This document shows, in pieces, positions 1-48,839 of a stretch of DNA of 64,000 bases; positions within the stretch are counted from its first letter, which is position 1, and each line of letters begins with the position of its first letter. The DNA lies in NCBI GenBank assembly GCA_020852715.1, contig JADZAE010000075.1, positions 23,960 to 87,959 of the forward strand, in the 5' to 3' direction. A program made the position numbers and the translations under genes. Below the pieces are notes generated by a model. The model did not search any database. It worked only from the letters and a program-made list of their open reading frames with translations, and was not told where the DNA came from. The stretch comes from Deltaproteobacteria bacterium. Its GTDB lineage: Bacteria > Bdellovibrionota_C > UBA2361 > SZUA-149 > JADZAE01.

Positions 1-191
1 ACATTATGAAATGCCGACAAGTAACCTCCAGCGTTCACATAAGACTTTAAATCAACCATGCCCTCAAGGCAAAGGTCAAAGCGTTTTAACTCGTAATATA
101 CAGCCATCAGCTGCACAAAATGCATTGATAATAATGCACTCTGACTAAATTTGGGACAAGGGTAGTCTATTTTGAGTTTTACTTTAGCCAT
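1..191 (-). CDS. Partial ORF running off the window start, unknown function (MAKVKLKIDYPCPKF...)
   Basis: The open frame on the minus strand has its ATG at 189-191 and continues beyond position 1. No domain was recognised. Confidence 0.3.
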   Translation of the reverse strand, partial: MAKVKLKIDYPCPKFSQSALLSMHFVQLMAVYYELKRFDLCLEGMVDLKSYVNAGGYLSAFHN

Positions 192-726
192 TTCGCGACG
201 TTCGACATCACCTAAAAGCGTCGCTATTTTTTTTAAATAACTCACGCTGACAACATTCGAGGGTTCAGCACTAGAATATTGGTAAGAAGTTAATAATAAA
301 TCTCACTGCTCTTTGAGCCGCGACTTTAGCTCCGGCTTAAGGGCCGAACAAAGAGCTTGATTCCAAAGTATAAATATCTGCTCAAATTTCCTTTCAGATT
401 TAACTGCGAAAATACTCTGTTCTGCTGTGAGGAAAGATAAAGCCTTAACTGCCTACTTCGTTGCGCCCAACATGAGAAGCGGTTTAATAGCTATTGCTGT
501 GGTAAAAAATATTGATCTCCCCTTATTGGTAGTATCAGCAAAGCTACCATCAGATTTCTGCTTGCCTATCAGCCAGTCAGCGGCATAATCAAACATAGCC
601 TTTATCCAATTTGTTGTTTCGAGAATTCATTATTTATACTTTCCTTTCGCCAGCAGTTGGCTCTCAATAACATAAGGGGCCATTGTCGCACGATGCTTAT
701 TTTTCATGCTAAAGCCTTAATTATCG

Positions 727-1536
727 CTTATGAAAATTGCTTTGATCATTTCCGGAATGTCCCGAACTTATAAACAGGCGTATGCCTCAATTTCTAAATA
801 TTTAATTCCGGATCTGGATTGCGATATTTACCTGCATAGCTAGAACATTGAAGGCAATATCACTTTTGCCTTAGAGGGCGATAAAGTGCAGAAAGGCGTT
901 ACGTGCGATTATACGACCACGGAAGACGAGCTAATTGCGGCCTATCATCCAAAAAAAATTATAGTCGAGCCATTTGCTCCTTTTGAGCAGGCCCATCAAG
1001 AAGTATCTGAAGGTTTAGCTAAGTTTAGTATTAGAAAATTTATCTCGATATTTTTGCAGTGACACAAAGTGAAACAAAACTTTGCTATGCTTGAGAATCC
1101 CGCGGATTATGATTTTATTATCCGCACACGCTTTGATTTAAAAATGTGTAATCCTTTCCCTTGGAAATTATTTTTAGGTAGCAAAAGGCTGCGCGGTAGC
1201 TTATGTTTTACCGAAATGCTTCAATATGGTTTTGATACGCTAAATTGCCAGGTTTGCGATCCGATTGCTATTGCTAATCCATATTACATGGATATCTATT
1301 CTTCGCTTTATGATGAAATGATGAACAATACTTATGCTCATCTTTACGAGGCGACCAAACCCGAGCTCTCCTCAGAATTTCTTTTAGCTTGGCATTTAAG
1401 GACAAATCATGTTCCGACTGTGGTATTACCCTTTAATTTTCAAATTGTCAGGCAAGAAAACCTTGCGCAAACAGCTAGCTATATCGAAACAAATAATTTC
1501 ATAAAAGAGTGGCGAGCATCTAACCCGATAAAATAG
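727..1536 (+). pseudogene. Glycosyltransferase-like (WavE/capsule-type) gene interrupted by in-frame TAG (838-840) and TGA (1060-1062)
   Basis: A single reading frame runs MKIALIISGMSRTYK...*...*...VKQNFAMLEN... through both stops. The 1069-1536 ORF in the track is in the same frame. Confidence 0.5.
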
Positions 1537-1537
1537 C

Positions 1538-2583
1538 ATGAAAAACAGCGATATTCTAACAATAATTATCCCTCTCATTAACGCGCATTCGTGCGCGAAT
1601 CTACTTACTTCTCTTAGTCAACAAACAAACTCTTCTTTTGCACTGATCATTATTGGCAATACGACTGAAATAGATAAAACGCTCCTCATTCATTATCGAG
1701 ATTGTAAAATTCTTCCATCTTCCGCTTCCACAATGAGCGCACTACTAGCTGAGGGCCTGGGTTACAGTTACACTGCTTATAGTACATCGCTTTTGCCAAT
1801 ATTTTATATAGCCTCTACTTTTGTAGCTAAAACCCTGGAGGCAATCGCTTCTAGTAAAAATAACTTCGACACACTCATGCCTGATCATGCGGTAATTGAA
1901 AATGATTGCTCAATGAAATATATCATCAAAAACGAGCATCTTGAGTACCGTGACCTGATCACAAATTTTAGTTTGTTTCCTTCCCTGATCAGTAAAACCA
2001 GAAATTGGCAGTCGTTTTTGCAGCACTTTTCACATACCAATTACTATATCTAAAATTGGTATTATGCTCTGAACCAGGCGAAAACTGCCGTACTGCTTCT
2101 TCTATCTGAGATGTTGCTATACCACCCGGAGCAACCTTTGAGCATAAGCTTTTATCTTATCAAAACAAGGAAGAGTTAAAGGCATTTGCTTTTGCTGATT
2201 TAGCAAAAAAATGCCTTTGCTCTAATCTGGATTTATATACTCGTGCTAATTATCTACTATCTGTTGCTTACTCCATTAATAACTCCAATCCATTTATTAC
2301 CTATATGTTAGCTTGCGTACGGGCTTTACTTAACAAAAAAGATGACGCCATAAAGATTATCGATAGTTTTCCTTTGAATTTAATTGAGAAAAAAGCTAGA
2401 GTTATTGAATCTATCATCACTTCTATTAATAATCTTTGCGCGAATAAAGCCAAAGGATTAAATAGTCTTGTCTTAAATGAAGAAGAACTTGGCGAACACG
2501 CCAATTGCCATGAATTTTTAGTATCACTCGAGAGAAGAACTTCAAGTTATCCGGATCCCTTAACTATAAATGACAAGGAATAG
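1538..2583 (+). pseudogene. GT2 glycosyltransferase with C-terminal TPR-like region, disrupted by an in-frame TAA and one frameshift
   Basis: The N-terminal IIIPLINAH... is a GT2-type start. The frame stays open after TAA at 2051-2053. A TPR-like helical segment continues to 2583 in another frame (…LCSNLDLYTRANYLLSVAYS…MLACVRALLNKKDDAIK…). Confidence 0.45.
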
Positions 2584-2586
2584 CTT

Positions 2587-3303
2587 ATGCCAACCGTAAC
2601 AAATAAACACATCTTAGACGTAGTCGGTGCCTTAACTAAAGAGCAATGGTATCTTTGGCTTCGCTATGGCTTAAATAATCGTCCTTACGAAACTCCTCCT
2701 ATTGTTGTGGAATACCCTGAGCTTGTTGTCTTACGTGGTGTTTATTTGCGTGAGTTGGCTGTTATGGCCCAAGCAAAGACTTTTTTGGAAATAGGAACTG
2801 CTCGCGGCTATCAAGCAATGAGCTGGGCAGATTATCTAAATTCCCAGCGCCTTATGGATGGTATCGTTTACACATTTGATATCGATGCTATGGATAAACG
2901 TATCTATAAGACACCGATGACAGGAGATCAGGTTTTTACCAGATCTGAACTATGGGAAAGCGAGGCTTGTGCTCGTTTTATCTGCTTTACGGACAGAACA
3001 AAGCAAAGCATTTCACAAACGATTAAACATAAAATTGATATGAGCTATATCGACGGACAACACGAGGAAGCACCGGTGATCGAAGATTTTGCCGAAGTCT
3101 TACCTTTTCTTCATCAAGATAGCATTGTTGTGTTCGATGATTGCGATGAACGCTTTTCCGGGGTGCAGAAGGCAGTTGCCGCTATTGCCGAGAAACTTCA
3201 AGCCCCGTATGAAATAGTTTCGTTTGAGCCTGCTGGTTACAAAATCGCCGTCATGCGTCTGGCTAATTGCGCCATTAAAGCTAATTTACCCAAGCGCAAC
3301 TAG
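2587..3303 (+). CDS. Class I SAM-dependent O-methyltransferase (CmcI/TylF-like, sugar-modifying)
   Basis: Motifs FLEIGTARGYQ and YIDGQHEE are typical of family 3 O-methyltransferases. Intact ORF. Confidence 0.7.
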   Translation: MPTVTNKHILDVVGALTKEQWYLWLRYGLNNRPYETPPIVVEYPELVVLRGVYLRELAVMAQAKTFLEIGTARGYQAMSWADYLNSQRLMDGIVYTFDIDAMDKRIYKTPMTGDQVFTRSELWESEACARFICFTDRTKQSISQTIKHKIDMSYIDGQHEEAPVIEDFAEVLPFLHQDSIVVFDDCDERFSGVQKAVAAIAEKLQAPYEIVSFEPAGYKIAVMRLANCAIKANLPKRN

Positions 3304-4076
3304 TTTTCCTGCTTTTCGCAGCTTTGACTATAATGCTGATGCTCTTCACTGTAGCCATGCATATTTAAGTGCGCTTCCTGATCACTTTTTTGTTCTAATG
3401 TCTGCGCAACGCTTAATACCTTACCACTAATCATTTCCTTACTTAGGCGGTGCAGCATGGTTTTGCCCAAATAAAAAAGCAGCAGGCTATAAGGATAGTG
3501 AAGCAGAGCCGCGATATTTAAAAATATTAGCGCGGTCAATATCTCTACTTTTTGCTGGTCAAGTTTAGAGACTTTTAGCCAATCTTTGAGATAATTTTCG
3601 CAATCAACTGAGTTCTGCTTACGGAGAAAATTGAATTCGATCACATTTAATCTATTGTTCTCATGGATCTTATTATCGTGAATCAATTCATGACAAATAA
3701 TAAAGCCGTGATTTAGCTTGGCCAGATCATAATACAGATCTCCATACTCGTAGATTCCCGCAAATTCCTGCCGTCAATCAAGAAGCGTAAAAGGCATTTA
3801 AGCTGTTCCACCGTTGACTAGAATATTCTCAAAATGAAGGTCTCCATGAAAGCGCACAGGCGACCCTTTGGCAATATATTCCCAATCAAGGCTATCGAGA
3901 ATAGTGCTGATCATTGGCACATGAACACCATTAATAATTTCCTCGGCATCAATCCGCTCATATCTAGTAAAAAACCGTTTAACTCGCTGGTAAGTTTTAT
4001 CTCGATAAAATTTAAGACAACTACTTTGAAAATTGGCACCTTGCTCAGCTACCAACTCTTTTTTCTGCCAAAAACC
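3300..4076 (-). pseudogene. APH/choline-kinase-like kinase domain (C-terminal half of the fused gene), interrupted by in-frame TAG, TAA and TGA
   Basis: The frame is the same as ORF 4077-5060: ...FFLECM*GFWQKKEL...[47 protein letters not shown].... It carries the Brenner motif HGDLHxxN, and the TGA sits where the conserved Trp of the LIDWE motif is expected. Confidence 0.6.
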
Positions 4077-5009
4077 CTACATACATTCGAGAAAGAATCG
4101 AAACGTAAACACGGACGGCATCTTAGAAAACACCTCGCTTTCGATTAAATTATAGCTATACATGTTCTCGGTTTGCGCGGTAATCTGCGGCACATAATTT
4201 CCTAAATACTTTGTGCGCTCCACCCGATCAGCAATGAATTTTTTATTAACTGAGTATTTTATTACCTTATTATTAACAAACCAGATCGCTTCATCCTCCT
4301 TTTCTAAAATATTATAACTCTCAGCGGCGCAGTTAAAATGCTCACGCGCACGATTTAAGGCTTCCAAATTCCCACTATCATACCAATCAAATTCCCGCTC
4401 TCCTATTCCCTGCGAAATTAAAAACTTCAGTCCATAGCTTTCCCCGATTTCAATGGAGCCTTCATTTTTCCCCTCTTCCATTGCCTGCCAAAAAGCCTGA
4501 TAATCCTTGATTCCCGCCAGTCCAATGTAAGGAGAAACATCACCGCTCGCCCCTTTCGAACAAATCTCTTTTACCAGACCACCTTCTTTAATTATCGAAC
4601 GATACGGGGACGTATCTTCCACCTGACAATAATGCCCCATCCAAATCTCTTCAGGCTCGGGGATAGATTCTGTGACCAGAGTATCATTGTAACAAAATAT
4701 AAAAGGGCACTGTAAAACATCTTTTGCACAAAGTAGCGAATATCCTAACCCACTTCCTTCCCCCTCGTATCGATCAACGTTGACAAAAGTAAATTTTCGA
4801 TCGGGATAAACCATTTGCAAAAAACCCATCACTGTTTCTTTCTTGTAGCCTATGGGAATAACGAGCTCGATATCAACCGGAAATTTTTCAATCACATAGG
4901 AGATGGCCGGCTTGTTGCCTATACTAACCAGTGCTTTCTTCACGTGTTTAGAAAGAGTCTTTAACCTTGCTTCTAACCCAGCAGTAGGAATAACAACTTT
5001 ATATTTCAT
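4077..5009 (-). CDS. Sugar-phosphate/phosphocholine nucleotidyltransferase domain (LicC/MurU-like), N-terminal half of a nucleotidyltransferase-kinase fusion
   Basis: KVVIPTAGLEARLKTL...KALVSIGNKPAI is the NTP-transferase signature. The likely start is MKYKVV at 5009. Alternative upstream starts are ATG at 5054 and TTG at 5060. Confidence 0.6.
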   Translation of the reverse strand: MKYKVVIPTAGLEARLKTLSKHVKKALVSIGNKPAISYVIEKFPVDIELVIPIGYKKETVMGFLQMVYPDRKFTFVNVDRYEGEGSGLGYSLLCAKDVLQCPFIFCYNDTLVTESIPEPEEIWMGHYCQVEDTSPYRSIIKEGGLVKEICSKGASGDVSPYIGLAGIKDYQAFWQAMEEGKNEGSIEIGESYGLKFLISQGIGEREFDWYDSGNLEALNRAREHFNCAAESYNILEKEDEAIWFVNNKVIKYSVNKKFIADRVERTKYLGNYVPQITAQTENMYSYNLIESEVFSKMPSVFTFRFFLECM

Positions 5010-5034
5010 AATATTAACCTTTTTAAACCCTGCA

Positions 5035-5377
5035 CTAAACTCGATTATAAGCATCAGCAATGCGCACTACATCTTCAAGCTGTGACGTCGAGCTTTCTAA
5101 ATATATAGAGTCCTCTAGCGACTCCATCTGGGACACTATAAATGGCTCAATTGTAATACAATCCCCGGCTACCAGGTCTTTCTGCTCTAAGGTATCCGCT
5201 GACTTCCCAATGTAAAGGTGTAGCGTTCCACTGAGAACATAAACGGTCTCTTTTTTTTTGCTCGTGATATTGAATGCTACACTTGTGCCCCTTATTCATG
5301 GTCAGTCTTTTAACTACATATTCGTTATTGTGCTCGAGCAATTCTTCCCGGCCCCATGGTTTCTCTGTAATTTTCAT
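5035..5377 (-). pseudogene. Small cupin (sugar isomerase/epimerase-like) with a frameshift in a 9-nt homopolymer (T9 on the plus strand, 5251-5259)
   Basis: The N-terminus is MKITEKPWGRE...GHKCSIQYHEQKK. Deleting one A from the A9 tract restores ...KKETVYVLSGTLHLYIGKSADTLEQKDLVAGDCITIEP...AYNRV*, a complete cupin. Confidence 0.6.
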
Positions 5378-5521
5378 AATGCCTCTTTTTTGAATTGATC
5401 ACATTAAAAGCGTTTAAGTATTTTATCAGCTTTTGTTCAATTGCTGACTTTAGAAAATCATCTAATGAAAATTTAAATTTGCGGGAAAGATACTCTTTGG
5501 CATCTTCTTTGATTTTTCGCG

Positions 5522-6559
5522 CTAGAGAATGGGGAAAATATAATATCCACAGATAATAGCTTTTTCGACGGCCGAAAGATTGCTCCCTTTAGCTTGCCAT
5601 TTTATCCAGCGGCCAGAATCAACGGCTAATTTTATAAATGCGTTAAAGGATTCGCTCAGTCCATATAGATTGAGGCAATATAGCAGAGCCTGAGTTTCCG
5701 CCACCCCTAATTCCCGAGCAATATTGGAGGCATGTATCTCTATACCGGGTCTAAGTAACAGGGCCTCATCGGGTAAATAATCAGTATTATATTCCTTCAG
5801 TAAGATTGTGCGTTGATTACAAATGTCTAGTGTCTTTTTATTATTATCTCGTAAACTTTGAACAGACTCGTAATCAGTAAGCTCTAAATTAAAGGCACCA
5901 ACATTACGCGTTTCAACAACTTTTGTTACGGTTTAAGCCACTACAAAAGTGGGCCGCGGATATTTATGTTGGCGACAGAATAAGTCAACTTTCTCTAAAA
6001 AATAAGCAAAGTGCTCGTGACATAGATACCCGCCTGATTGCTCTTCCGTGCCTAATTCAAATTCTATTGTCTTGTTATGTTGCTCAGCAAAGGAAACACA
6101 ATAAGAGTATAGCTCAAAAAGTCTGTCAAGAACGATATCTAAATCAAAATCTCGAGCATCGGAACTAATACTAGGGTCGATGTGAATAAATGAAAAGTCA
6201 GATAGTATATCCTCCTCATATGATTTCTTTGCCGTTGCTATAGCTTCTTCTGTGGCTAACTTTTGTTCATTAGCTCCTTGCCATGGACCACCATGGTCAC
6301 GAGCCATAAAAAGACATGGGCTAGCTAAAGATTTCACATAATCACTGAATTCTTCCGTGGAATAATTTTCTACATATCCTCCACCTAACTCTTGCGCATC
6401 AATCTGCCGTCGGCTAGCAATTAGAATCATCGGAATTTTATGATGGGCAGAAATTTGAGTACAAATATCAATGCTGTTTCTGCTCATTGGACCAAGGTAC
6501 GGCAAGGTGCAACGATTGGCCGCTATATAGCTACGAATGTATTCTCCTAGACTCCCCAT
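5522..6559 (-). pseudogene. GatZ/KbaZ-family (tagatose-bisphosphate aldolase accessory / tagatose-6-P kinase-like) gene with an in-frame TAA at 5933-5935
   Basis: IASRRQIDAQELGGGY...ARDHGGPW aligns to GatZ EATSNQVNQFGGYTG...GGDHLGPN. ORFs 5933-6559 and 5522-5704 are in the same frame, separated by TAA. Confidence 0.5.
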
Positions 6560-6594
6560 TTGCCACTAACCTTTATTGATAAGTTTGGTAGTTG

Positions 6595-7073
6595 TCACGG
6601 GTCATGAGGTTGGAAGAACTTTTCTAGAACGTGCAAACACGCTTCAGATACAGCACCATGACTGCCACTCGATTTTATTACATAAGAGGCAAATGGTTTG
6701 CTTACGGCATGAACATTAGCCGGAGCGATGGAGTAGCCGACTTCACGAAAAACATAGTGATCTAAAATGCCATCGCCCATATAGATGACACTCTTTGCTT
6801 CCCAATGTCTTTGATCCAATCTATGCGTTTGATTGTGCTGACAAGTTCCAGCGGAAATTTCATATCATCAACTACGCGCGCTTTGGTGATATCAAAACCT
6901 CTATGGTCCCCGGTGATAAAATGTATTTCTAAGTAAGGCTTGATTAGGCAAAGTGCATCATGGTCATCAGAGCCAAAAACTTTCATCACTTTGCCTTCTT
7001 TGATGTAATAGAAACGACCGTCGGTCAAAACGCCATCAACATCAAAGACAAATATTTTTGGCTCTACCTTCAT
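6595..7073 (-). pseudogene. KdsC-like HAD phosphatase (Kdo-8-P phosphatase family), frameshifted
   Basis: The N-terminal FVFDVDGVLTDG and C-terminal YMGDGILD...SSGSHGAVSEACLHVL segments match KdsC. They lie in different frames and overlap at 6762-6819. Confidence 0.55.
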
Positions 7074-7187
7074 AAAGACCTCTTAAAACCCTGTACTCGT
7101 TTGGATGACTTCCATGGCATAAGGATACCTGCTTATGCATCTATCTTGCTTCAACTTAAATAAAACTAAAATTGCCTTATTGTATCG

Positions 7188-7324
7188 TACGCAAGAAGTT
7201 AGTTGAACGGCATATTACTAAGTAATTAAGTTTTGCGTGCGGTATAAAGAAAAGCAAGGATGCTTTTCGCGGAAGCGAAACCCCGATTCGCGTCCGTAAA
7301 TGCCCATAAATAAGCCATTGATGG
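7188..7324 (-). repeat. Rep-A leader element, copy 3 (reverse orientation), ending about 115 bp upstream of the kdsC-like start
   Basis: The reverse complement matches 12312-12464 (GCCATCCATGGCTTCATTAAGAGCA...CGAATCGGGGTTTCGC...ATACCGCAC...GTGCGGTAT). Confidence 0.7.
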
Positions 7325-7440
7325 CCTATTTATGAGCAAAATGAAACTAAGCCCCATCCGGGCGGATTTTGCGAAGCAAAATCATGGGGCAGAAACTAAG
7401 CCTTCACATATTTAGTCGTTTTCGATTAGGAAATGTCAGA
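7325..7440 (+). repeat. Rep-B element, copy 1
   Basis: It shares the core ...TTTTGCGAAGCAAAA..ATGGGG...GACTAAGCCTTCACA..TTAGTCGTTT.CGAT with 28782-28865 and 38358-38440. Confidence 0.65.
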
Positions 7441-7636
7441 TTAATCATTAGTATTTTTATAATAGCGTTATTTGATTGCAATTTTTAACCATGTGAAGGT
7501 TTATCCATTTGCTTAGGGCAATGACAAAATGAATGCGCTATGGGTTTCTGCTCATATACTATGTATTAAAAATGGAAACTTATTGCATATTATATCATCC
7601 AAATTAACACTGCAGTGGAGGTTAAAAAGGAAACTA

Positions 7637-8527
7637 ATGAATAGGCCAATGAAGATATTAACTTTTTATGATGTCCAAGGTTGGGCCTGGTGGCACCGTT
7701 CCCACCATATTCAAGAAAATCTTTCTCCAGCCTTCCAATTGGATATCAAGCAAGACAAGGAAAAGTATAATCCCCTAGATTATGATATCGTCATGATCTT
7801 TGATTATTATTTTTTAACTTTAGATCATTTTACAGTACCGCCGCCGGATCGCTTGCTCATCGGCTGCAGCAACTCCCGATTAATAGATGAAATGATTTAT
7901 GTAGTTGAACAAAGCCACTGCTTGGCCGGTTTCATGAACAACTTTGGCGATTACAAAAAGATGACCGGACATCCCAATTACTTTTGCTGTCAAAACGGAG
8001 TAGATACCAGTCTATTCTATCCGCCTGCGCAACGGCCGGAAAAGTTTAAAGCTTGCTGGGTTGGCAGTCTTAACTCGATGTGTAACAAAGGCGGTGATCT
8101 AATCAAGGCCGCATGTGAAAAGGCCGGGGTGGAATTGATTTGCGTGGGAGTTGATCCCCGCTATGACAAGCTCCTCTCTCACGATCAGCTACGTGAGCAA
8201 GCATATCACCACGCTTCCGTCTTAATCTGCGCATCGGAATTTGAAGGCACCCCAAATCCAGCCTTAGAAGCTATGGCCTGCGGCGTCCCTGTTATTTCCA
8301 CCCGAGTAGGCAACATGCCGGAGCTTATTCGTGAAGGATACAACGGTATTTTAGTCAACCGTAGCGTTGACGAAATCGCTGACGCTATCAGAGTCATTGC
8401 CGCATTAGATAAGGAAACCTTAGCCATTAACTGTCGCCAATCAATCGAAAATGGTTGGACTTGGAAGCAACAAACAAAAAAGTATGAGACAATGTTTACA
8501 ACACTAGCAGCACGACGTGGCTTATAA
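7637..8527 (+). CDS. Glycosyltransferase family 1 (GT4-type)
   Basis: EFEGTPNPALEAMACGVPVIST is the E-X7-E motif. AAGGAA lies 4 nt before the ATG at 7637. The track ORF starts at 7529. Confidence 0.75.
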   Translation: MNRPMKILTFYDVQGWAWWHRSHHIQENLSPAFQLDIKQDKEKYNPLDYDIVMIFDYYFLTLDHFTVPPPDRLLIGCSNSRLIDEMIYVVEQSHCLAGFMNNFGDYKKMTGHPNYFCCQNGVDTSLFYPPAQRPEKFKACWVGSLNSMCNKGGDLIKAACEKAGVELICVGVDPRYDKLLSHDQLREQAYHHASVLICASEFEGTPNPALEAMACGVPVISTRVGNMPELIREGYNGILVNRSVDEIADAIRVIAALDKETLAINCRQSIENGWTWKQQTKKYETMFTTLAARRGL

Positions 8528-8556
8528 GAAACATCATAACGGGGTAAGTTAAAATC

Positions 8557-10056
8557 ATGACACTTTCAACACAGCCGAAAATAAGACAGTATCCCTGCGC
8601 AACGCTCTGTGACATTTCTGATTTTTTAGTACCACGAAACTCCGCATATTTAAAGATATGCAAACCAGGATTTACCCTCTCTACAAAAAGACGGCAGTGG
8701 GAATGGAACTTTATTGCCGAAAGTGCAGAAAACCTGGGGCTACTGGATGGAACAAAAATAGTGATGGGGGTAGGCACTGGTAACGAACCTCTGCTATTCT
8801 TTTTCGCTCGAACCTGCGCCGATGTGTTAGGTTCGGATCTTTATTCCGCAGATACAGATTGGAGTGTGGCGCGTTTTGAAAAGCATGAACAAATCTATAA
8901 TAGCGCTCCCTTTGATTTTCCCAAGGAAAGATTACATTTTGTCAATGCTGACATGAGGAAACTGCCGGTCGAGGATAATAGCTATGACTTTGTATGGTCC
9001 ACATCAACTATTGAGCATCCGGCATCCGCGCGTGAAGTTTACATGGCAATACAGGAAATGCTACGCGTCGTTAAGCCCGGTGGCTATGTTTTATTCACTA
9101 CTGAATACTGCGTTAGCGAGCCGCCCTATTTTCTACCGCACTTAAATACCCTAGACCCGTATTTATTCGGTAAGTATTTTTATAACAATCAGGGATTTGA
9201 AATAATCGGCGATGTCGATTTAGAATTTAACTGGCAGTCTATTACCAATGATATTTCGCTAAGAAGAAATGTTCCAATACCGTATTATAAACATTTTGAT
9301 CAGTTACAGTTTTATGCTCCGCAGAGCATAGTGCAAAGCTTAGGGTTTTCGTTGGTCGTACCAATTGGCATGGTTCTTCGCAAAATTGAAGGGAAAATGA
9401 AATCATGGGATAATTTAGGTCTCCCTCAGGTCTATCTGGATTATGCTAGCGCCGCGGAGGCATTTGACGAAAAAGAATTTAATAAATGTTATTCGTTAAT
9501 TATCAATTACGGTTTACACAACAGCCAAAGTCTCCCGCTGCAGTTTTATGCTCAGTTGGCTACCTTAATTTTACGAGCTAAGCTGGAAATAGGAAATCCG
9601 TATGACAATGAGGCGCTGCAAGTATATCAAAATGTTATTCAGCGTATCCCTTATGGATTACATCAGGATGCTGATCTACTTGATATCCTGGCCTATTACG
9701 CTTCCGGTATGGATAATAAGGAAGTCAGCTCTGAACTGTTATATTTGGTTGTTAATTCTACATCTTCCATTGCCCCTCATGCTATTTCTTGCTCACTAAG
9801 ACGAATGGAAATTCTCGCACAGCTGGGAAAAGAGGAGGAAGGAATTAATTTTGTAATCACTACCTATGGTGCCTATCTCAGCGAGGAAAAGGCTTCTGTC
9901 CCCTTTGCTAATATCATGCAAGAGATTATAAATAAATCTGCAACAAATCCTCTTTATCAAAAATTGCGTGAACGCTTAAAAGATTTACTCGAGAATCAAG
10001 TTAAAACAAGACGGCAAGAGTTAGCGGCTTTTGAACAAGCAACGAATAAGTATTAG
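8557..10056 (+). CDS. Class I SAM-dependent methyltransferase with a C-terminal TPR-like helical domain
   Basis: VMGVGTGNEPL...DNSYDFVWSTSTIEH...VVKPGGYVLF is a Methyltransf_11/23 fold. About 250 aa of helical repeats follow. Confidence 0.7.
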   Translation: MTLSTQPKIRQYPCATLCDISDFLVPRNSAYLKICKPGFTLSTKRRQWEWNFIAESAENLGLLDGTKIVMGVGTGNEPLLFFFARTCADVLGSDLYSADTDWSVARFEKHEQIYNSAPFDFPKERLHFVNADMRKLPVEDNSYDFVWSTSTIEHPASAREVYMAIQEMLRVVKPGGYVLFTTEYCVSEPPYFLPHLNTLDPYLFGKYFYNNQGFEIIGDVDLEFNWQSITNDISLRRNVPIPYYKHFDQLQFYAPQSIVQSLGFSLVVPIGMVLRKIEGKMKSWDNLGLPQVYLDYASAAEAFDEKEFNKCYSLIINYGLHNSQSLPLQFYAQLATLILRAKLEIGNPYDNEALQVYQNVIQRIPYGLHQDADLLDILAYYASGMDNKEVSSELLYLVVNSTSSIAPHAISCSLRRMEILAQLGKEEEGINFVITTYGAYLSEEKASVPFANIMQEIINKSATNPLYQKLRERLKDLLENQVKTRRQELAAFEQATNKY

Positions 10057-10213
10057 TTCCATTAATACTGTCCTCTCAACCATGTCTTAGCCAATTCAGC
10101 GTTATAATTTCTGGTCATGCTCAGCATGCCCCTACATCGTATCGCGGTTATTCATGCGGATGAAAATGTCGTGGCTACTGGGCTTATTATGAAGGAATAT
10201 GATTGGGCCCTTG

Positions 10214-12106
10214 CTATTGCTGCATGTAATCCTGTTTGTGATCAAGCAAATGTCTCCAGGCTTCCACCGTTTTATGCGCTACGTTATCCCAGGTAAAAAA
10301 TTTCGAGCGTTCATAACCGCGTTCAACCAAATCAGCCCTTAGCGTCTCATTAAACATCAGCGCAGTCATCGCTTCCACTAAATCCTCATATCTTCCCGGT
10401 TCAACATAAATGACACAATCGCCACCTACTTCCGGAATGGATCCGCGCGGGGAAGTTATAACTGCGCAGCGTTTGGCCATTGCTTCTAAGACCGGGAAAC
10501 CAAACCCTTCATATTCTGAGGGGAAAAGCAGTCCAGCTGCTCCTGCGTATAAGCACTCCAGCTCCTCTCGGCTTACGAAATCCGTAAACACAACTTCCTT
10601 GACCTCTTCTTTTTTTAGAACGTCTTGAAAAGTTACTTTATAAGGATCGTCTTTGATGCTGCCCGCGACAGCTAACATCGGTGGAAGAATTTTATCAGAA
10701 TCAGCAAATGTTCGATATAATGCTCGAGCGGATCTTAAGACAAATTCAAAGTTCTTATGCGGATCACAGGCGCCGACAGTAAGAAAATACGGTGGTCGTA
10801 AATTAAATTTCTTTAAAACATCTGCTATCTCCTGGGGCGTATAAATTCGTGGTTTATCCGGCTGATTTAGGCCGGCCATAATTACCGCAATTTTATTCGG
10901 ATCAACTCCACCATACCTGATTACATCCTGTCTAGTGCAATCAGAGATTGCCAGAATCTGAGTATTTGAGCTTATCACTTGTTCTAATCTTGAACGATAT
11001 GCGACTTTATTATCTTCTGGCCACTGATCATAGTGGTAATGCGCAGAAACCAAGGGAATTAAATCATAAAAAATTGACGAGGTTGGTAAATGATCGATGC
11101 AACGAAACGGAGAATCAAAGTTTGTTAAGATGGCCATCGGATCCAAAACGAAATAGAGATCGGAATCGGGGCGTGTTTTAGCGCTAAAAAATCCAAATTC
11201 AAATGCCTCTTGGGGTAAATGTTTACGTATTTGCTGGATTGGTGCGCGGGGCTCTACATAAAGCTTGAAACGAAAATTGGGGTATAGTTTATTTATTGTC
11301 TTTAGCAAGTTTACCGCATAATGCCCGATACCGCGTGATATCGATCCCCCAAATGCAAATGTTCGTGCATCAACAGCAATATGCAAGTTCTTCATTACTG
11401 ACATCTGCCAGGCAATTGTTTCAGCATTTGGCCAAACAAAAGTACTTTGCCCGACATCCAAAGAATTGCCTACCGGGATTACTTTCTCCAAACCAGCATC
11501 AGAAAAGGTGAGCAGATGCTCCTTCAAAGTTCCGCCTTTATTTTTTATTTTCTTAATATGTTCAATGAGCGATTTGATTAAGTTTTCTTCTTCCGAGAAG
11601 ATAATCTCTAATGTTTTCGTGGCCAAACCGTTCACCGCTATATAAGTCAAATCTTCCGAGCGGATTGACAGTTGCTGCCACTGTGCTTCATGATAAGGTG
11701 AAATAACTAGCGGGCAGCTGTGTCCATCAACTACTTTTAATATTTGTTCATCCCAAGCTTTAGAAAATGTCGCGCCAGGCTGAAGGAATACTACTAAATC
11801 ATCATTTTGTATCCAATTTAATTGGCCCAAAATATGATTATATATGGCACAAATGCTTTGCGTGGATTCGCTACGCATAAAGCCTTCCGTAAATTCCTCT
11901 AGTTGCTGGAGCCATTCTGTTGTGCCATCGCTGGAGCCATTATCAATCAAGATTAAATTATATGGACAGTAGGCACTGTGATAGAAAGATTCTAAAGTAT
12001 CGGCTAATTTCATCAGACAGTTTGTCGCCACCAAGACAATGGTTAGACGGCGACGCTTTTGCAGCATTTCTTTAACCGCCTGTAGTGAGAATGGTATCTT
12101 ATTCAT
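10214..12106 (-). CDS. Bifunctional glycosyltransferase (N-terminal GT2 domain + C-terminal GT1/GT4 domain)
   Basis: LTIVLVATNC...ILIDNGSSDGT is GT2. The C-terminal FPSEYEGFGFPVLEAMAKRCAVITS is the GT4 E-X7-E motif. Confidence 0.75.
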   Translation of the reverse strand: MNKIPFSLQAVKEMLQKRRRLTIVLVATNCLMKLADTLESFYHSAYCPYNLILIDNGSSDGTTEWLQQLEEFTEGFMRSESTQSICAIYNHILGQLNWIQNDDLVVFLQPGATFSKAWDEQILKVVDGHSCPLVISPYHEAQWQQLSIRSEDLTYIAVNGLATKTLEIIFSEEENLIKSLIEHIKKIKNKGGTLKEHLLTFSDAGLEKVIPVGNSLDVGQSTFVWPNAETIAWQMSVMKNLHIAVDARTFAFGGSISRGIGHYAVNLLKTINKLYPNFRFKLYVEPRAPIQQIRKHLPQEAFEFGFFSAKTRPDSDLYFVLDPMAILTNFDSPFRCIDHLPTSSIFYDLIPLVSAHYHYDQWPEDNKVAYRSRLEQVISSNTQILAISDCTRQDVIRYGGVDPNKIAVIMAGLNQPDKPRIYTPQEIADVLKKFNLRPPYFLTVGACDPHKNFEFVLRSARALYRTFADSDKILPPMLAVAGSIKDDPYKVTFQDVLKKEEVKEVVFTDFVSREELECLYAGAAGLLFPSEYEGFGFPVLEAMAKRCAVITSPRGSIPEVGGDCVIYVEPGRYEDLVEAMTALMFNETLRADLVERGYERSKFFTWDNVAHKTVEAWRHLLDHKQDYMQQ

Positions 12107-12233
12107 TGTGTTGCTGGCTCAACCATTTTAACTAAGCTCCACACCGGAGTAGCTGATAATTTAGACAATTACTTATAAGTATTTGATGCGATTTAGATCA
12201 GTAAAGTTGCAAAGTAGATACCATTACTAAAAA

Positions 12234-12464
12234 CTAAATTAACTTTTGAGCTGAAAAGCATAAATGCTTTCTATCTTTGTCCTAAGGTAATGGTATATTT
12301 TTGTTCGGCTCTTACTTCAGCCATCCATGGCTTCATTAAGAGCATTTTCGGAGGCGAATCGGGGTTTCGCCCCCGAGGAAACCATCCTTGGTTTCCTCCA
12401 TACCGCACTCAAAAATAGTATTACCTAGTAAAGCATCGTTTAATTTAGTTTTTGTGTGCGGTAT
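12234..12464 (+). repeat. Rep-A composite element, copy 1: palindromic operator, extended -10-like box, then structured leader ending in a 16-bp inverted-repeat hairpin
   Basis: The sequence is AAATTAACTTTTGAGCTGAAAAGCATAAATGCTTTCTATC..TGGTATATT..GCCATCCATGGCTTC...ATACCGCACTCAAAAA...TTTTTGTGTGCGGTAT. It ends 109 bp before the ATG at 12573. Confidence 0.8.
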
Positions 12465-12572
12465 ATAACGACTATTGCCATAATATCACTAGCAAATATC
12501 CGATTTGCTAAATTTGAATCAACTCACCTTAGAAATTAATCTTATTAAACAGACAATTATCCAGGGGAAGCA

Positions 12573-15029
12573 ATGAGCAATTTAATGTCATTTATTATTT
12601 GTACTGACTCCTACTATCAGGAAGCCGAGTTAGTCAGTGTACTGATTTCCAGTCAGCAGCAAAGCATAGCCGATTTAGAGGTTATCTGTTTGTGCGACAA
12701 TGATCGTTTGGCCGAGCTTAAAAACATTGCCGCCGACTTCACTGTTCCCGTCAATATTATTTTGACCGATGGAAAAAATGCGAACCAAGGCAAAAATTTG
12801 GCCCTGAAACAAGCTCAGGGAGAATATATTGTTATCCTTGAGCGAGGTTATTTCCCTCAACCTGACTGCTGTAAAAGAATCATAGAAATCTTTCGCAATA
12901 ACCCAACAATTGGAATGATCTACTCATCCACAGATATTATCGGTTCTGACCCTAGTGATCCAAATAGAACGTTTACCTGTCTGCGAGAAACTCCCGGGCC
13001 GCTAATCAAAGCTAACATCCTTTACCGGCCTTTTTTTCCTGCACATACAGCTTTCAAAAAATCGTTATTGCGTCCAGAGATAACCTTTTCCGACCGCATG
13101 AATGACGCCAATAGAATTTTCTTCAACTCCTTATTTATTGAAGCAAGAGAACAAGCTTTTTATCATTCACGGCCTTTGTTTAAAAAATATGTAACGCAGC
13201 TTGATCTGATTAACGATGTCCAGTCCAGCAATCATTTATCTTTGGTCGATTCTGTTAGAAATTGTCCCGGACTGTATTCCCCGGAATTGTATCAGGGATA
13301 TGAAACTTTCCAGCAATTATTTAAGGATAGTATGAGCAAACCGCTGCTCATTTATATTCCTCAGCCGAAAATTGGTGCTGATAATCTTATTGGTGAGGCT
13401 TCATGGCGCTACATTCAATGCATTTATGACATTTGGGATTTCATAATTCTCCAAGTTCCGATCAGTGACCCAGAACAAATGATTGATGGTTTGGTTAATG
13501 GCATGTTTTATTCTCGCTTTTACACTCAGAATATCGATGATACACTCAATCGTATTTGTTCCTTCGGAAAAAAAATTGTCCTAATAGCCGAAGAAAATCC
13601 TGCCCTTTTGATGGCTTCTAAAACCCGCCATCAAGTTATTGTAAGAATACTCTGCACGGCCAATCCTTTTACCTATGAGGATTTTGATCAAATAGATTTG
13701 GTGATCAAGGCCAGCGAATATACCCCGGTTCAGCTAAACAACACAGCATGCTTAGATACATCAATTCGCGAACTAACTGGCGATCCGGCGGTTCAAAGTG
13801 CCCTTGCGCAGCTATTTTATGAAAAAGAAAGTGAGCGCGATACAAATTTAAAAGCATTGGCTCTAAAACTAAAGACAGCTAAACAATATTTGCGTAATTA
13901 TAAAGCCCCTAACCAGGACGAACTTTCATTATCGGTCATTATTGGTTGTCGCAATGTCCAACTGGAATGCCTAGAACGCTGCGTAGCCTCGTTACGTCAG
14001 CAAGATCACGTCTCGGCTATTGACATCATTTTATCTGACTATGGATCAGATAATCTTCACAGGGAGGAGTTAAAAGCTTTAGCCGATCGCTACCAGGCAA
14101 AGCATGTCTATACACCTTCGACGAACTGTTGGTCTCGTTCGATTGCGCTTAATATTGGTATCCAATCAGCAACTAAAAAATGGGTGTTAACAACCGACGC
14201 CGATATGCTTTTTAGTCGCGGTTTTATCTCGATGCTCTCGGCCTATCTTAAAGCTTTCGGCGAAAAGTGCGTATTCTATGCACAACCTTTAAAGCTACTA
14301 CCGGTGCGATTGCCCAAGGATTGGAACAACAGCCTTTATGATCAATATGCACAACGAAGTTGGCTCTTTGACAAAATCGGCAAAGGTGGCTGTCAGGTAG
14401 CGACACGAGAACTATTAATGAAGGTACGCGGCTTTAACGAGATTTATTCCGTTTGGGGTCAAGAAGATCACGATATGTATGAGCGCCTAGGCTGGGCCGG
14501 GCTAGAACGAGTATGGATTGAACCCTGCTGGTATCTGCATCAATGGCATCTGTCGAATATTAACTACGCCGCAGCTAACAACGCCAATACCGAAGCTTAC
14601 TTAGAGTTAAAAAAGATTCCCAAAGTAATAGTCAACCGTCCGTTTTGGGGAAAAAGTTCACCAGCAGCTTTCATGAAAGCGCAAAATTCACATACTTCGT
14701 TTGCTTCTACCGGGCTTAATAAAAATGACTTGGAAAGAGACATTCTCGAAAATGATTTTGATCCTGTAATGCAGAAACAAATTCTTACCGGTATTGTTCG
14801 GACACTCATTGAACTTGAGCAGTACGGTTCAGCATTACAAACGCTGGAAGATATCTGTCAGCTTGATAGCCGAGATTATGAGGCGTTTACTCTCAGGGCC
14901 CAAATTACTTCCATGTTAGGCGATCACTGTTTTGCCCGAATTCTTATCGATCAGGCTTTGGAAGCTAATTCTTATCACCAGCAGGCTCTTGATCTGAGTA
15001 ATATGTTAATCCAGCGCTACGGATTATAG
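12573..15029 (+). CDS. Tandem GT2 glycosyltransferase (two GT2 domains) with a C-terminal TPR domain
   Basis: The two GT2 cores are VICLCDNDRL...EYIVILERG and LSVIIGCRN...ILSDYGSDN...TTDADMLF. The C-terminal region (ILTGIVRTLIELEQYGSALQTLEDICQLD...) is TPR-like. Confidence 0.75.
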   Translation: MSNLMSFIICTDSYYQEAELVSVLISSQQQSIADLEVICLCDNDRLAELKNIAADFTVPVNIILTDGKNANQGKNLALKQAQGEYIVILERGYFPQPDCCKRIIEIFRNNPTIGMIYSSTDIIGSDPSDPNRTFTCLRETPGPLIKANILYRPFFPAHTAFKKSLLRPEITFSDRMNDANRIFFNSLFIEAREQAFYHSRPLFKKYVTQLDLINDVQSSNHLSLVDSVRNCPGLYSPELYQGYETFQQLFKDSMSKPLLIYIPQPKIGADNLIGEASWRYIQCIYDIWDFIILQVPISDPEQMIDGLVNGMFYSRFYTQNIDDTLNRICSFGKKIVLIAEENPALLMASKTRHQVIVRILCTANPFTYEDFDQIDLVIKASEYTPVQLNNTACLDTSIRELTGDPAVQSALAQLFYEKESERDTNLKALALKLKTAKQYLRNYKAPNQDELSLSVIIGCRNVQLECLERCVASLRQQDHVSAIDIILSDYGSDNLHREELKALADRYQAKHVYTPSTNCWSRSIALNIGIQSATKKWVLTTDADMLFSRGFISMLSAYLKAFGEKCVFYAQPLKLLPVRLPKDWNNSLYDQYAQRSWLFDKIGKGGCQVATRELLMKVRGFNEIYSVWGQEDHDMYERLGWAGLERVWIEPCWYLHQWHLSNINYAAANNANTEAYLELKKIPKVIVNRPFWGKSSPAAFMKAQNSHTSFASTGLNKNDLERDILENDFDPVMQKQILTGIVRTLIELEQYGSALQTLEDICQLDSRDYEAFTLRAQITSMLGDHCFARILIDQALEANSYHQQALDLSNMLIQRYGL

Positions 15030-15071
15030 CTACTAGAGGGCTAGGGATTTTCTATACCACTCCCAAGAAAT

Positions 15072-15491
15072 AAATTAACTTTTAAGCTGAAAAGCATAAA
15101 TGCTTTCTATCTTCGTCCTATGGGAATGGTACATTTTTGTTTCGCTCTTAATCCTAAAAAAATCAGTCGAGGCGATAGGAAGCCTCAAAAAAATAAAAAA
15201 TCGCGCCCACTTACCTTAGAATTTGAAAATTACCAGCGGGTGGCGCGATTTTTTATTTTTTTGAGGGCTACCTAAAGAGATTCACTGAGTTTTTGGGATT
15301 GATAAAACGGCTACTGCCGTTTTTAGGTTAATTTAGCCATCCATGGCTTCATTAAGAGCAGATGCGGGAGCGAATCAGGGTTTCGCTCCCGAAGAAAGCA
15401 TCCTTGCTTTCCTTTATACCGTACACAAAAATAGTATTACCTGGTAAAGCACCGTTCAAGGTCTTTGTTTCAACTTTTTTGTGTACGGTAT
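15072..15491 (+). repeat. Rep-A composite element, copy 2, carrying a ~185-bp insertion (15150-15333) that holds a terminator cassette
   Basis: Identical blocks are AAATTAACTTTTAAGCTGAAAAGCATAAATGCTTTCTATC and GCCATCCATGGCTTCATTAAGAGCA...ATACCGTACACAAAAA...TTTTTTGTGTACGGTAT. The element ends 146 bp before the ATG at 15637. Confidence 0.8.
15236..15330. terminator. Repeated terminator cassette (hairpins AAAAAATCGCGCCCAC/GTGGCGCGATTTTTT and AAAACGGCTACTGCCGTTTTT), also present at the window end
   Basis: These are GC stem-loops flanked by A/T runs on both sides. The reverse complement matches 63928-64000. Confidence 0.6.
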
Positions 15492-15636
15492 AAATATTAC
15501 GCCTTTGATTGGGCTCGCGTCTCATTATTGTTCAATAGTAAATTCTTGCGGCAATATAAACAGAATGCTAGTAATTCCTATCGGCCCTTAGTTAAATAGA
15601 TAGCCTACTAATATGACATTTTTACCTGGTTGTTAA

Positions 15637-25380: not shown

Positions 25381-25385
25381 ATATA

Positions 25386-25444
25386 CCTTACACAAAAAGT
25401 TTGAACGGTGTCTTACTGGGTATTACTATTTTTGTGTGCGGTAT
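25386..25444 (-). repeat. Partial Rep-A hairpin copy (CCTTACACAAAAA...TTTTTGTGTGCGGTAT) between convergent genes
   Basis: Its loop is the reverse complement of the copy-2 loop (ATAGTAATACCCAGTAAGACACCGTTCAAAC). Confidence 0.6.
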
Positions 25445-25470
25445 AAAATACATTGCCGAAGAGTACATAA

Positions 25471-25497
25471 GAAAGGGGGCTAACCGCCCCCTTTCTT
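25471..25497. terminator. Rho-independent terminator hairpin (AAGGGGGC-TAAC-CGCCCCCTTTCTTT)
   Basis: A GC-rich perfect stem is followed by a T-run on the minus-strand reading, 20 bp beyond the glgA-like stop. Confidence 0.7.
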
Positions 25498-25516
25498 TAT
25501 CGCCTATTTCTTTCGA

Positions 25517-28189: not shown

Positions 28190-28744
28190 GCATTAATGCT
28201 ATTTCGGAAATGCTGCAAGCTCTGCCGTTAAGAACTCAGTAGCGAATTTGCTTCATGAACCACAACAAACGCAACATCCCACTTCTTCAATCTGACAGTG
28301 CAAAGCAACTCTTTCCTTACTACCCAACGAACTTATAGACGCGCTTTTCAAACCAAAGGGTTCAAAAAAATGCCTATTGAATAAGAAAAAAGTTATCGCA
28401 CCAACTTCGACTACCCCCAGCTAAACAAGGTCAGAAAACTCGAGCATCGTTCCCATAAAAAACCAGTATTTCCTTAGGGCGGATACTACGTTAGTTTGTT
28501 TGCAAACAAAATAGCATTTACAAAACTTTTACATCTTTTTGTTACAAAAACCGACCTCTAGCTGTCAACATGATAGTCCTTAGTTCTTGTACTCACAGAT
28601 TTAGAGAGAATTAAGATCCCTAACTGCGATGGCAATCTATTACCTTTACTTCGGTAGTAATAGCTGGGTGTAAAGTTAAGCTCTCTAAATAGCTATCATT
28701 TAAGCCTTAAGAGGGTTTTAATGTATCCGTTCACGACCTTTACT

Positions 28745-28937
28745 GAGTTTCTATTCAAAAGCCTCCAGAGGAAGCAAGTTTTGCGAAGCAAAACTATGGA
28801 GGGGACGAAGACTAAGCCTTCACAAGATTAGTTGTTTCCGATTATAAAACGACAATAAATAACTATAAATGTTCATATTTGCAATACCTCAGGAACGCTA
28901 TTAGTAATAATCCGTGAAGGCTTACGTTTTAGCTTCG
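28745..28937 (+). repeat. Rep-B element, copy 2 (with distal inverted repeat TAAGCCTTCACAAG / CCGTGAAGGCTTAC)
   Basis: It matches 38316-38520 over about 190 bp and contains the hairpin GTTTTGCGAAGCAAAAC. Confidence 0.75.
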
Positions 28938-29191
28938 TTATCCACAGCTTTACAAATTATATGATTGCTCAAGCGCCAAGCTTTAGTTAATTAAGCCGAA
29001 AGTCTAGCTGGGGATAGCAACATATCTTCCTTAGCGGGATAAGTTATTTAATAAAACAAGGGTATTTGCATATATGCTAATCGATAGTATTTATTGGGCT
29101 TCCCTGATCAAGAATGGCTAATCTGGGAAAGCTTAGTTTTTAGTGATGCACAGCTTTTCCTTCAGAAATATTTGAACTTATTAGGTTATTT

Positions 29192-30562: not shown

Positions 30563-30564
30563 CC

Positions 30565-31257: not shown

Positions 31258-31259
31258 AA

Positions 31260-31508
31260 CTATTTTTTCTCTTCGAAGAGAACAGTAAAATTCTCAATAT
31301 CAGGATTAATCAATAAACGATCGCACATTTGGCTAATACGCTCACGCGTCCCCTCTTGATCCGCTGATTCGATATCTAGCTCTATTAACTTGCCAATTCT
31401 GGCAGCACGCACTTCGGCAAAACCAAGCTCTACCAACCGTTGCTTTAAAACTCTGCCGGCAGCATCGATAACATCTTCGTTTAAACGAATAAGTACATTG
31501 GCTTTCAT
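31260..31508 (-). CDS. purS: Phosphoribosylformylglycinamidine synthase subunit PurS
   Basis: 82 aa, PurS-like, immediately upstream of purQ. Confidence 0.8.
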   Translation of the reverse strand: MKANVLIRLNEDVIDAAGRVLKQRLVELGFAEVRAARIGKLIELDIESADQEGTRERISQMCDRLLINPDIENFTVLFEEKK

Positions 31509-31641
31509 AAATCATTCCTTTTCTTCCACTAGGAAATTTTAAGCAAAACACTAAATCACTACATATAACGGTTAATTCATAACTGGGCTTTAATCCTAAG
31601 ACAAGAAACATTTCCCCTTAAATAGGGGAAATGCCTAGTTC

Positions 31642-48802: not shown

Positions 48803-48839
48803 TCAGCTAGTCCGTAATCTAATCATACGTTTTTATGGT

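Follow-up and report, generated by a model that had tools for sequence, protein, structure and literature searches.

Positions 3300-7073 on the minus strand of the window (the whole 64-kb stretch of DNA analysed, which comes from a metagenome-assembled genome, MAG) hold the remains of four co-linear genes encoding, in order, a KdsC-like HAD phosphatase, a GatZ/KbaZ-like protein, a small cupin of the phosphomannose isomerase (PMI) type, and a fusion of a nucleotidyltransferase (NTase) to an APH-like kinase. With a probability of roughly 0.7, this stretch is a pseudogenised copy of a conserved operon, the intact form of which most likely supplies a surface glycan with a nucleoside diphosphate (NDP)-activated rare sugar, built de novo starting from a central ketose phosphate. 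As a family, the cassette is a so far uncharacterised variation on a known nucleotide-sugar activation logic, and no published description of the four-gene cassette was found in the literature on GatZ epimerases, tagatose and talose nucleotide sugars, kinase-NTase fusions, and O-antigen clusters. The annotation of the 3.8-kb stretch consists of one hypothetical protein and non-coding DNA.

The gene map is based on tblastn of intact homologues against the window and on codon-level reading of the DNA (Table 1). In a six-frame listing of open reading frames (ORFs) for window positions 1-12000, short, broken minus-strand ORFs extend across 3300-7073. When window positions 1-13000 were compared by blastx with the ORFs of 85 related loci, homology was limited to ~3400-7100 with sharp edges, in agreement with the bounds that an earlier note, made from the sequence alone, had given for a decayed nucleotide-sugar module. 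Pfam and NCBIfam scans of the window ORF fragments and of intact homologues upheld all of the domains named there (KdsC-like HAD, GatZ/KbaZ, cupin, NTase, and APH kinase). No second copy of the cassette was detected by tblastn of the intact homologues against the 64 kb.

The four genes form a real operon that is conserved across phyla. When a single genome from each GTDB species was scanned, the fusion protein turned up in 262 species, and 80 loci were fetched for neighbourhood counts. By tblastn and ORF clustering, 56 of these loci have all four genes together, with few exceptions arranged as HAD, GatZ-like, cupin, NTase-kinase, and the window order (7073 to 3438, minus strand) is identical to that of these 56 loci, with all four genes adjacent and co-oriented; loci without all four genes are mostly cut by contig ends. 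Counted singly, the cupin lies beside the fusion in 71 of the 80 loci, the KdsC-type phosphatase in 62, and the GatZ-like gene in 60. The carriers include Marinomonas, Ca. Ruthia, Campylobacter concisus, Arcobacter, Wolinella, Legionellales, Chlamydiales, SAR86, SAR11/Pelagibacteraceae, Prochlorococcus, Synechococcus, Chlorobium, Geobacter, Nitrotoga, Massilia, Gastranaerophilales, and Lachnospiraceae. Intact cassettes are usually placed in glycan loci; in Marinomonas colpomeniae and Ca. Ruthia magnifica they sit inside polysaccharide loci and the fusion gene is preceded, in the same orientation, by genes for a 163-174-aa HAD, a 381-aa protein, and a 115-aa cupin. The intact M. colpomeniae cassette spans L001 5906-9572 (JACYFC010000002) and that of C. 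concisus L009 4969-8578. The window copy is of the four-gene type and groups with Marinomonas and C. concisus. The four genes named in the earlier note are thus present intact in widely differing bacteria, as linked genes and not as orthologues scattered through unrelated contexts.

A variant of the cassette replaces the GatZ-like protein and the cupin with a SIS protein of the 6-phospho-3-hexuloisomerase (PHI) type and a protein of the ribulose-phosphate 3-epimerase (RPE) type, and was recognised in six of the fetched genome loci (L013, L018, L020, L041, L062, and L070) plus the contigs L004/L005 (L004 453-3751). The SIS protein scores above the NCBIfam cut-off for PHI and its partner just above that for RPE. 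In the fusion-protein tree (neighbour-joining, no bootstraps), the PHI/RPE loci are spread over two or more separate clades, a distribution suggesting that the front end of the cassette was swapped repeatedly by non-orthologous replacement. The variant-type HAD has 53% and 38% identity to the two window HAD fragments, compared with 69% and 55% for the Marinomonas HAD.

Additional genes recur at the intact loci. In 49 of the 80 loci, an unannotated gene of ~280 aa separates the GatZ-like gene from the cupin (e.g., L046 5823-6647 and L019 3936-4805); its product has no Pfam or NCBIfam match, and its N-terminus looks GT-A-like by eye. Cassettes of the window type lack this gene. Directly after the NTase-kinase, again in 49 of the 80 loci, there is a methyltransferase of ~380 aa (Methyltransf_23 plus a Methyltransf_14/PF08484 C-methyltransferase C-terminal domain; Table 1), which suggests that the sugar or a precursor is methylated. 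A ~417-aa glycosyltransferase-like gene and a fused ATP-binding cassette (ABC) exporter are also frequent. Neither the ~280-aa gene, the ~380-aa methyltransferase, the ~417-aa glycosyltransferase-like gene, nor the ABC transporter has a homologue in the window.

Within the window, every one of the four genes is truncated, with a total of seven lesions in 3.7 kb (four in-frame stops and three frameshifts). Matches of the Marinomonas and Ruthia HAD by tblastn fall in two frames (7067-6807, 69-75% identity; 6822-6550, 52-55%), and a reading of the junction DNA places the frameshift outside any homopolymer; the HAD stop at 6595-6597 is close to the normal C-terminus. The GatZ-like match (6538-5534, 49% identity) is interrupted by a TAA at 5933-5935 in place of the invariant Q205, and a frameshift in or near a T4C4 run (5531-5538) moves the C-terminal ~45 aa into another frame. 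The cupin is likewise split between two frames (5371-5255 at 69% and 5292-5038 at 46%) by a +1 frameshift inside an A9 run at 5251-5259. The NTase-kinase can be followed in a single frame over residues 1-522 of 522 (61% identity) and contains three stops, a TAG at 4077-4079, a TAA at 3798-3800, and a TGA at 3774-3776, the last at the invariant Trp (W409) of the DWRQ motif. Within this gene, ORF 4077-5060 is 100% identical over 95% of its length to a 310-aa protein (P0001) annotated as hypothetical on a 93,444-bp contig from a MAG labelled Deltaproteobacteria bacterium; since its hundreds of homologues are ~523 aa long, the ORF corresponds to the N-terminal three fifths of what was a longer protein. 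The NTase-kinase frame also runs on ~46 codons beyond the end of all homologues and stops at 3300-3302, overlapping the 3' end (3303) of a convergent methyltransferase gene, and the original stop codon may have been lost.

Decay extends beyond the truncating lesions. Using columns conserved in at least 97% of the intact members of each family as invariant, the window copy has changes at four of 84 columns in the NTase-kinase (including G13E in the GxGxRL signature), six of 43 in the GatZ-like protein (Q>stop, G>V, H>Y, P>R, K>R, and H>Y, including H251Y, P276R, and H333Y), two of 28 in the cupin (the motif-2 H>S and an R>Q, with FKIHRMEA becoming FIVSQMES), and one of 32 in the HAD (T to I), whereas the median for intact members is zero in every family. 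This pattern fits relaxed selection after inactivation, and the 50-70% identity to distant homologues that is still retained suggests that the loss of the cassette is not ancient. Read at the sequence level, the copy is a pseudogene remnant from which the pathway would be unable to run, because all four genes carry truncating lesions; the earlier note had claimed that all of the module except the methyltransferase was inactivated, and the four genes are broken and the methyltransferase is full length.

As the source is a MAG, the lesions could in principle be errors of metagenome assembly or of a consensus across mixed strains, with the genes intact in the living organism, a scenario we judge highly improbable. 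The A9 homopolymer at the cupin frameshift is a possible site of assembly error or a slippage-prone site, and a search for a second, independent assembly of this population with which to confirm the lesions came up empty (an exact-protein look-up returned no near-identical contigs and a metagenome scan returned nothing above 66% identity); together with the MAG origin, these points count against a genuine pseudogene. Nevertheless, four of the seven lesions are base substitutions giving TAG, TAA, TAA, and TGA, two of them at the family-invariant Q205 and W409, two of the three frameshifts lie outside long homopolymers, and residues predicted to act in catalysis or as ligands have been exchanged as well (H251Y, the cupin H to S, and G13E). 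Elsewhere in the window, uninterrupted ORFs reach 915 aa, which argues against a high error rate. Based on the substitution stops, the replaced invariant residues, and the long intact neighbouring ORFs, sequencing error as the sole cause of the lesions is unlikely. An alternative genetic code or programmed read-through was ruled out, because the in-frame stops use TAA, TAG, and TGA, each of which also terminates long ORFs elsewhere in the window.

Turning to what the intact cassette might do, the pathway most likely would start with an epimerisation, because the GatZ-like family keeps the catalytic tetrad of the GatZ C4 epimerases. GatZ/KbaZ interconvert fructose-6-phosphate and tagatose-6-phosphate, with a proposed Zn-dependent retro-aldol/aldol mechanism that uses Asp87, His88, Glu171, and His257 (PMC11907403). 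In the cassette family, D82, H83, E168, and H251 are all invariant and align to GatZ D87, H88, E171, and H257 (HMMER). The AlphaFold model of an intact homologue (P0121; pLDDT, the model confidence score, 90.3) has 3TXV and 2FIQ (GatZ) as top Foldseek matches with template modelling (TM) scores of 0.74-0.77, compared with ~0.5 for class II aldolases. A PF08013 match is precomputed for most of the full-length homologues, and P0121 scores ~20 bits against NCBIfam GatZ/KbaZ cut-offs of 569-707. The window copy fails as a functional member of the family because H251, the predicted zinc ligand, is a Tyr (KEYNTDY), leaving the tetrad incomplete, and Q205 is a TAA stop.

The window HAD fragments match TIGR01670 (6762-7073, 4.5e-08; 6595-6819, 1.8e-08) and both are matched by NF007019, and the DxDG nucleophile motif is retained (DVDGV). 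The intact Marinomonas HAD matches the KdsC subfamily model at 1.6e-20 with 73.6 bits against a cut-off of 106.95; by these scores, the cassette HAD is a KdsC-related subfamily and not a KdsC equivalog. For the cupin, the window fragment (5147-5377) is above the cut-off for MannoseP_isomer (PF01050; 24.2 bits versus 23.6) and the intact protein matches the isomerase end of the GMP_PMI model (4.4e-09). The conserved motif-2 His, which from cupin motifs would bind the metal, is replaced by Ser in the window, where the ORF is also frameshifted.

In the fusion gene, ORF 4077-5060 matches sugar-1-phosphate nucleotidyltransferases in Pfam and NCBIfam and ORF 3798-4055 has a weak APH match, and among intact homologues APH (PF01636) is found in 14 of 14 and NTP_transferase in 10 of 14. 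The NTase half has a Rossmann-like NTase fold in which A10, G11, G13, R15, and L16 are invariant among homologues; in the window the signature reads AGLEARL, with G13 changed to Glu, and GxGxRL is not kept. In the kinase half, the HGDLHFEN and DWRQ (D408) motifs, which correspond to the HxDxxxxN catalytic loop and the metal-binding Asp downstream of it in APH-type phosphotransferases, are invariant in the family; the window kinase keeps the catalytic-loop motif, with the TGA directly after the D of DWRQ and the TAA eight codons upstream breaking the ORF. A profile of the kinase half compared with all Protein Data Bank sequences returned no significant match to solved kinases (E = 1.8-2.3, macrolide and hygromycin phosphotransferases), and the Foldseek matches of the full-length fusion model (pLDDT 90.4) were filled by NTases, leaving the kinase half unranked. 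The kinase was described in the earlier note as APH/LicA/AmgK-like; the APH fold stands (14 of 14), while by sequence it can be assigned to neither LicA, AmgK, nor NahK. No profile, structure, or Pfam search moved either half of the fusion to an unrelated family.

Among solved NTases, LicC is both the best target-normalised structural match of the NTase half (TM 0.83, followed by MurU, RmlA-like enzymes, and HddC) and its best profile match (1JYK, 1.7e-09), which raises the alternative that the cassette activates phosphocholine (LicA/LicC-like) or another phospho-alcohol, giving a cytidine diphosphate (CDP)-linked phospho-substituent for lipopolysaccharide or teichoic-acid-like polymers. The Treponema denticola LicCA fusion has the same domain order, NTase then kinase, some sources name the homologues 'choline kinase', and LicD-like and CTP-transferase-like genes lie a few genes downstream in Ruthia. 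LicA/LicC also shares with the cassette the pairing of an APH/choline-kinase-fold kinase with a small LicC-like NTase. However, HddC, GalU, RmlA, and MurU match the NTase half about equally to LicC, and the kinase half lacks a significant sequence match to solved choline kinases. Unlike LicA/LicC, moreover, the fusion is in tight linkage with genes that encode an epimerase, an isomerase, and a phosphatase of sugar phosphates and is almost always flanked by them (in the neighbourhood counts above, the cupin, the phosphatase, and either the GatZ-like gene or, in six loci, PHI and RPE), enzymes without a role in choline activation. We therefore regard phospho-alcohol activation as quite unlikely.

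For the rare-sugar pathway, the following steps are predicted. The GatZ-like protein would act as a Zn-dependent retro-aldol/aldol C4 epimerase converting fructose-6-phosphate to tagatose-6-phosphate, and the cupin, by analogy with phosphomannose isomerase, would isomerise tagatose-6-phosphate to an aldose-6-phosphate. By stereochemical analogy with the conversion of fructose-6-phosphate to mannose-6-phosphate this product would be talose-6-phosphate, with galactose-6-phosphate as the alternative; the talo or galacto configuration is a guess. The APH-like kinase would then phosphorylate the anomeric hydroxyl and the KdsC-like HAD would take off the 6-phosphate, in either order, after which the NTase domain would couple the sugar-1-phosphate to a nucleoside monophosphate to give the NDP-sugar. 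The main lines of the four-step pathway set out in the earlier note are kept in this scheme, which differs in giving a role to the GatZ-like protein, left without one there despite its conserved C4-epimerase tetrad. The logic of an epimerase followed by an isomerase is supported by the PHI/RPE variant, because that front end again consists of one isomerase and one epimerase of ketose phosphates. Tentatively, and at slightly less than even odds, the cassette represents an undescribed de novo route from fructose-6-phosphate through tagatose-6-phosphate and, e.g., D-talose-6-phosphate to an NDP-rare hexose, with a front end swapped more than once for PHI/RPE, and the window captures the recent loss of that sugar from the surface glycan of one lineage.

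Several points weigh against this scheme. Unlike the gene content, the cross-phylum operon linkage, the folds, the conserved catalytic motifs, and the lesions, which are observed, every substrate and product is one that we infer, because no paper reporting assayed enzymes of the four-gene cassette was found. Activity of the kinase half on an anomeric hydroxyl is an analogy with NahK and AmgK only, since this half has no significant match to solved kinases. The window GatZ-like fragment (5933-6559) matches the GatZ_KbaZ-like family at 3.4e-4 with 19.8 bits, below the Pfam cut-off of 26.7, and the profile of the cassette family reaches E. coli GatZ (2FIQ) by sequence only at 2.8e-4. Finally, the PHI/RPE variants lack the cupin and have a much more divergent HAD, and different cassettes may yield different sugars.

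The cassette could also make something other than a talo- or galacto-hexose, such as a ketose in nucleotide-activated form or a sugar with a different number of carbons (a pentose or heptose), for example through tagatose-2,6-bisphosphate and tagatose-2-phosphate to NDP-tagatose, or from sedoheptulose-7-phosphate through its C4 epimer to a heptose. A GatZ-type retro-aldol epimerisation could in principle take any ketose phosphate, HddC, a heptose-1-phosphate guanylyltransferase, is among the best NTase matches, the PHI and RPE front ends are enzymes typical of pentulose and hexulose phosphates, and the conserved ~380-aa methyltransferase downstream has a C-methyltransferase C-terminal domain. 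Such a product is nonetheless unlikely, as the sole assayed activity of the GatZ family is the interconversion of fructose-6-phosphate and tagatose-6-phosphate (PMC11907403) and the PMI-type cupin points to an aldose; the present data discriminate no chain length.

Among known activation systems, the NDP-heptose pathway (GmhA, HldE/HddA, GmhB, and HldE/HddC) has the step logic of the cassette: isomerisation of a ketose phosphate gives an aldose phosphate, which is phosphorylated at the anomeric position, loses its distal phosphate to a HAD, and is nucleotidylated; in HldE the kinase and NTase are likewise fused, and few solved proteins are closer to the cassette NTase half than HddC. With the exception of the NTase, the cassette proteins come from other families: where the heptose pathway has the SIS protein GmhA, a ribokinase or GHMP kinase, and GmhB, the cassette has a cupin, an APH-like kinase, and a KdsC-type HAD. 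It differs further in the additional GatZ-like epimerase step, in its NTase-then-kinase domain order, and in a substrate that is probably a hexose. None of the four cassette proteins reaches the GmhA, HldE, or GmhB models, and the gmhA and HddC matches are weak or on other proteins. The earlier note compared the module with the heptose (GmhA/HldE/GmhB) and LicA/LicC systems as the same logic in non-orthologous folds, which is a reasonable analogy.

Further known systems resemble parts of the cassette. In AmgK/MurU (a MurNAc/GlcNAc anomeric kinase and a MurNAc-1-phosphate uridylyltransferase), as in NahK, an APH-fold anomeric kinase feeds a small NTase, and MurU structures match the cassette NTase half at TM 0.73-0.76, but the NCBIfam MurU model scores the cassette NTase at 16-19 bits against a cut-off of 250, and AmgK/MurU salvages a free sugar, whereas the cassette has its own de novo front end. 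With GatZ/KbaZ the cassette protein shares the fold (Foldseek scores as above), the Asp/His/Glu/His tetrad, and the pairing with a HAD phosphatase, a C4 epimerase plus HAD phosphatase being the E. coli tagatose route (PMC11907403). It is, in contrast, a distant and shorter subfamily (~381 aa versus 420 aa) in a biosynthetic glycan context, as opposed to galactitol or GalNAc catabolism. The bifunctional GDP-mannose pyrophosphorylase/phosphomannose isomerases ManC/AlgA also team a PMI-type cupin with a sugar-1-phosphate NTase, though in the cassette the cupin (115 aa) is a protein of its own, with its gene immediately upstream of that for the NTase, and a kinase and phosphatase take the place of a phosphomutase.

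The genes around the dead cassette point to a glycan locus. Flanking ORFs at 7529-8527, 8557-10056, 10214-12106, and 12573-15029 are long and encode glycosyltransferases and methyltransferases; because these are uninterrupted, the locus appears to have dropped one sugar instead of decaying as a whole. Coverage by long ORFs is ~0.65 for window positions 1-8000 and 0.82 for the whole window. At the edge of the window (1-2583) there are short ORFs (886-1062, 1069-1536, 1538-2053, and 2305-2583) without a Pfam match and with low long-ORF coverage, one of which (1538-2053) begins with a GT2-like motif by eye, and which may be further decayed glycan genes. Long-ORF coverage is also ~0.67-0.68 at 28001-32000 and 48001-52000.

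The class I methyltransferase dependent on S-adenosylmethionine (SAM) that converges on the cassette was assigned in the earlier note to an O-methylation step of the module, and this role was ruled out by lack of co-occurrence. The gene has no homologue in the 85 cassette-related loci (blastx), and the cassette is absent from the loci of its own homologues. Only three homologues were found in a large database; as these are 216-234 aa, the window gene is full length.

A structured intergenic repeat of ~160 nt occurs in four copies in the window (covariance model), three of which lie 5' of operons in the glycan locus, the dead cassette included, and the weaker fourth 3' of an 890-aa gene (Table 1). 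The repeat has four predicted hairpins, with compensatory changes at 10 of 50 pairs among only four copies (tblastx, alignment, and RNAalifold), and no Rfam match; in the cassette-adjacent copy, ~5 pairs of the last stem are broken. It is also present in related contigs (L117 5764-5923 and L118 1365-1524), in one of these directly after a homologue of the window methyltransferase. The repeat could be a cis-regulatory RNA or an element like a repetitive extragenic palindrome or a miniature inverted-repeat transposable element (REP/MITE-like), and its reading as an operon leader is weakened because the fourth copy sits 3' of a gene. Some copies are accompanied by a second conserved module of ~100 nt, GATACCATT...GAAAGCATAAATGCTTTC...AATGGTATA, which is itself hairpin-like. 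In the copy at 15054-15492, an insert of ~175 nt splits this module from the core; within the insert, a GC hairpin with a T run after it resembles a terminator.

Table 1. Coordinates of the cassette pseudogenes, neighbouring features, and recurrent elements (window positions unless a contig or locus is given)
Feature	Position	Strand	Remarks
KdsC-like HAD phosphatase pseudogene	6595..7073	-	tblastn 3e-60; one frameshift at ~6808-6822
GatZ/KbaZ-like predicted ketose-6-phosphate C4-epimerase pseudogene	~5385..6559	-	tblastn 4e-105; stop and frameshift
PMI-type cupin pseudogene, predicted sugar-phosphate aldose/ketose isomerase	5035..5377	-	tblastn 6e-22, 3e-16; frameshift
NTase (~5009-4320) + APH-like kinase (~4305-3438) fusion pseudogene	3438..5009	-	tblastn E = 0, 653 bits; three stops
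Class I SAM methyltransferase (Methyltransf_24), 238 aa, intact	2587..3303	+	Pfam 6.6e-15; convergent with cassette
~160-nt structured intergenic repeat	7181..7338	-	directly 5' of cassette, same strand
~160-nt repeat, other copy	12307-12465	+	covariance model
~160-nt repeat, other copy	15323-15492	+	covariance model
~160-nt repeat, other copy	25382-25523	-	covariance model; weaker, 62.7 bits
~100-nt module	12197-12320; L117 5650-5760		just 5' of repeat core
~380-aa methyltransferase, examples at intact cassettes	L002 9572-10705; L009 8568-9710; L046 8570-9703		46 further loci

For the organism, the loss of the cassette probably changed its surface glycan. Across the family, which reaches 262 species representatives, including very abundant marine bacteria and human-associated Campylobacter, the cassette is the logic of the heptose pathway rebuilt from unrelated folds; with it, C4 epimerases of the GatZ type would gain a function in biosynthesis, and its four proteins could yield a new nucleotide sugar.

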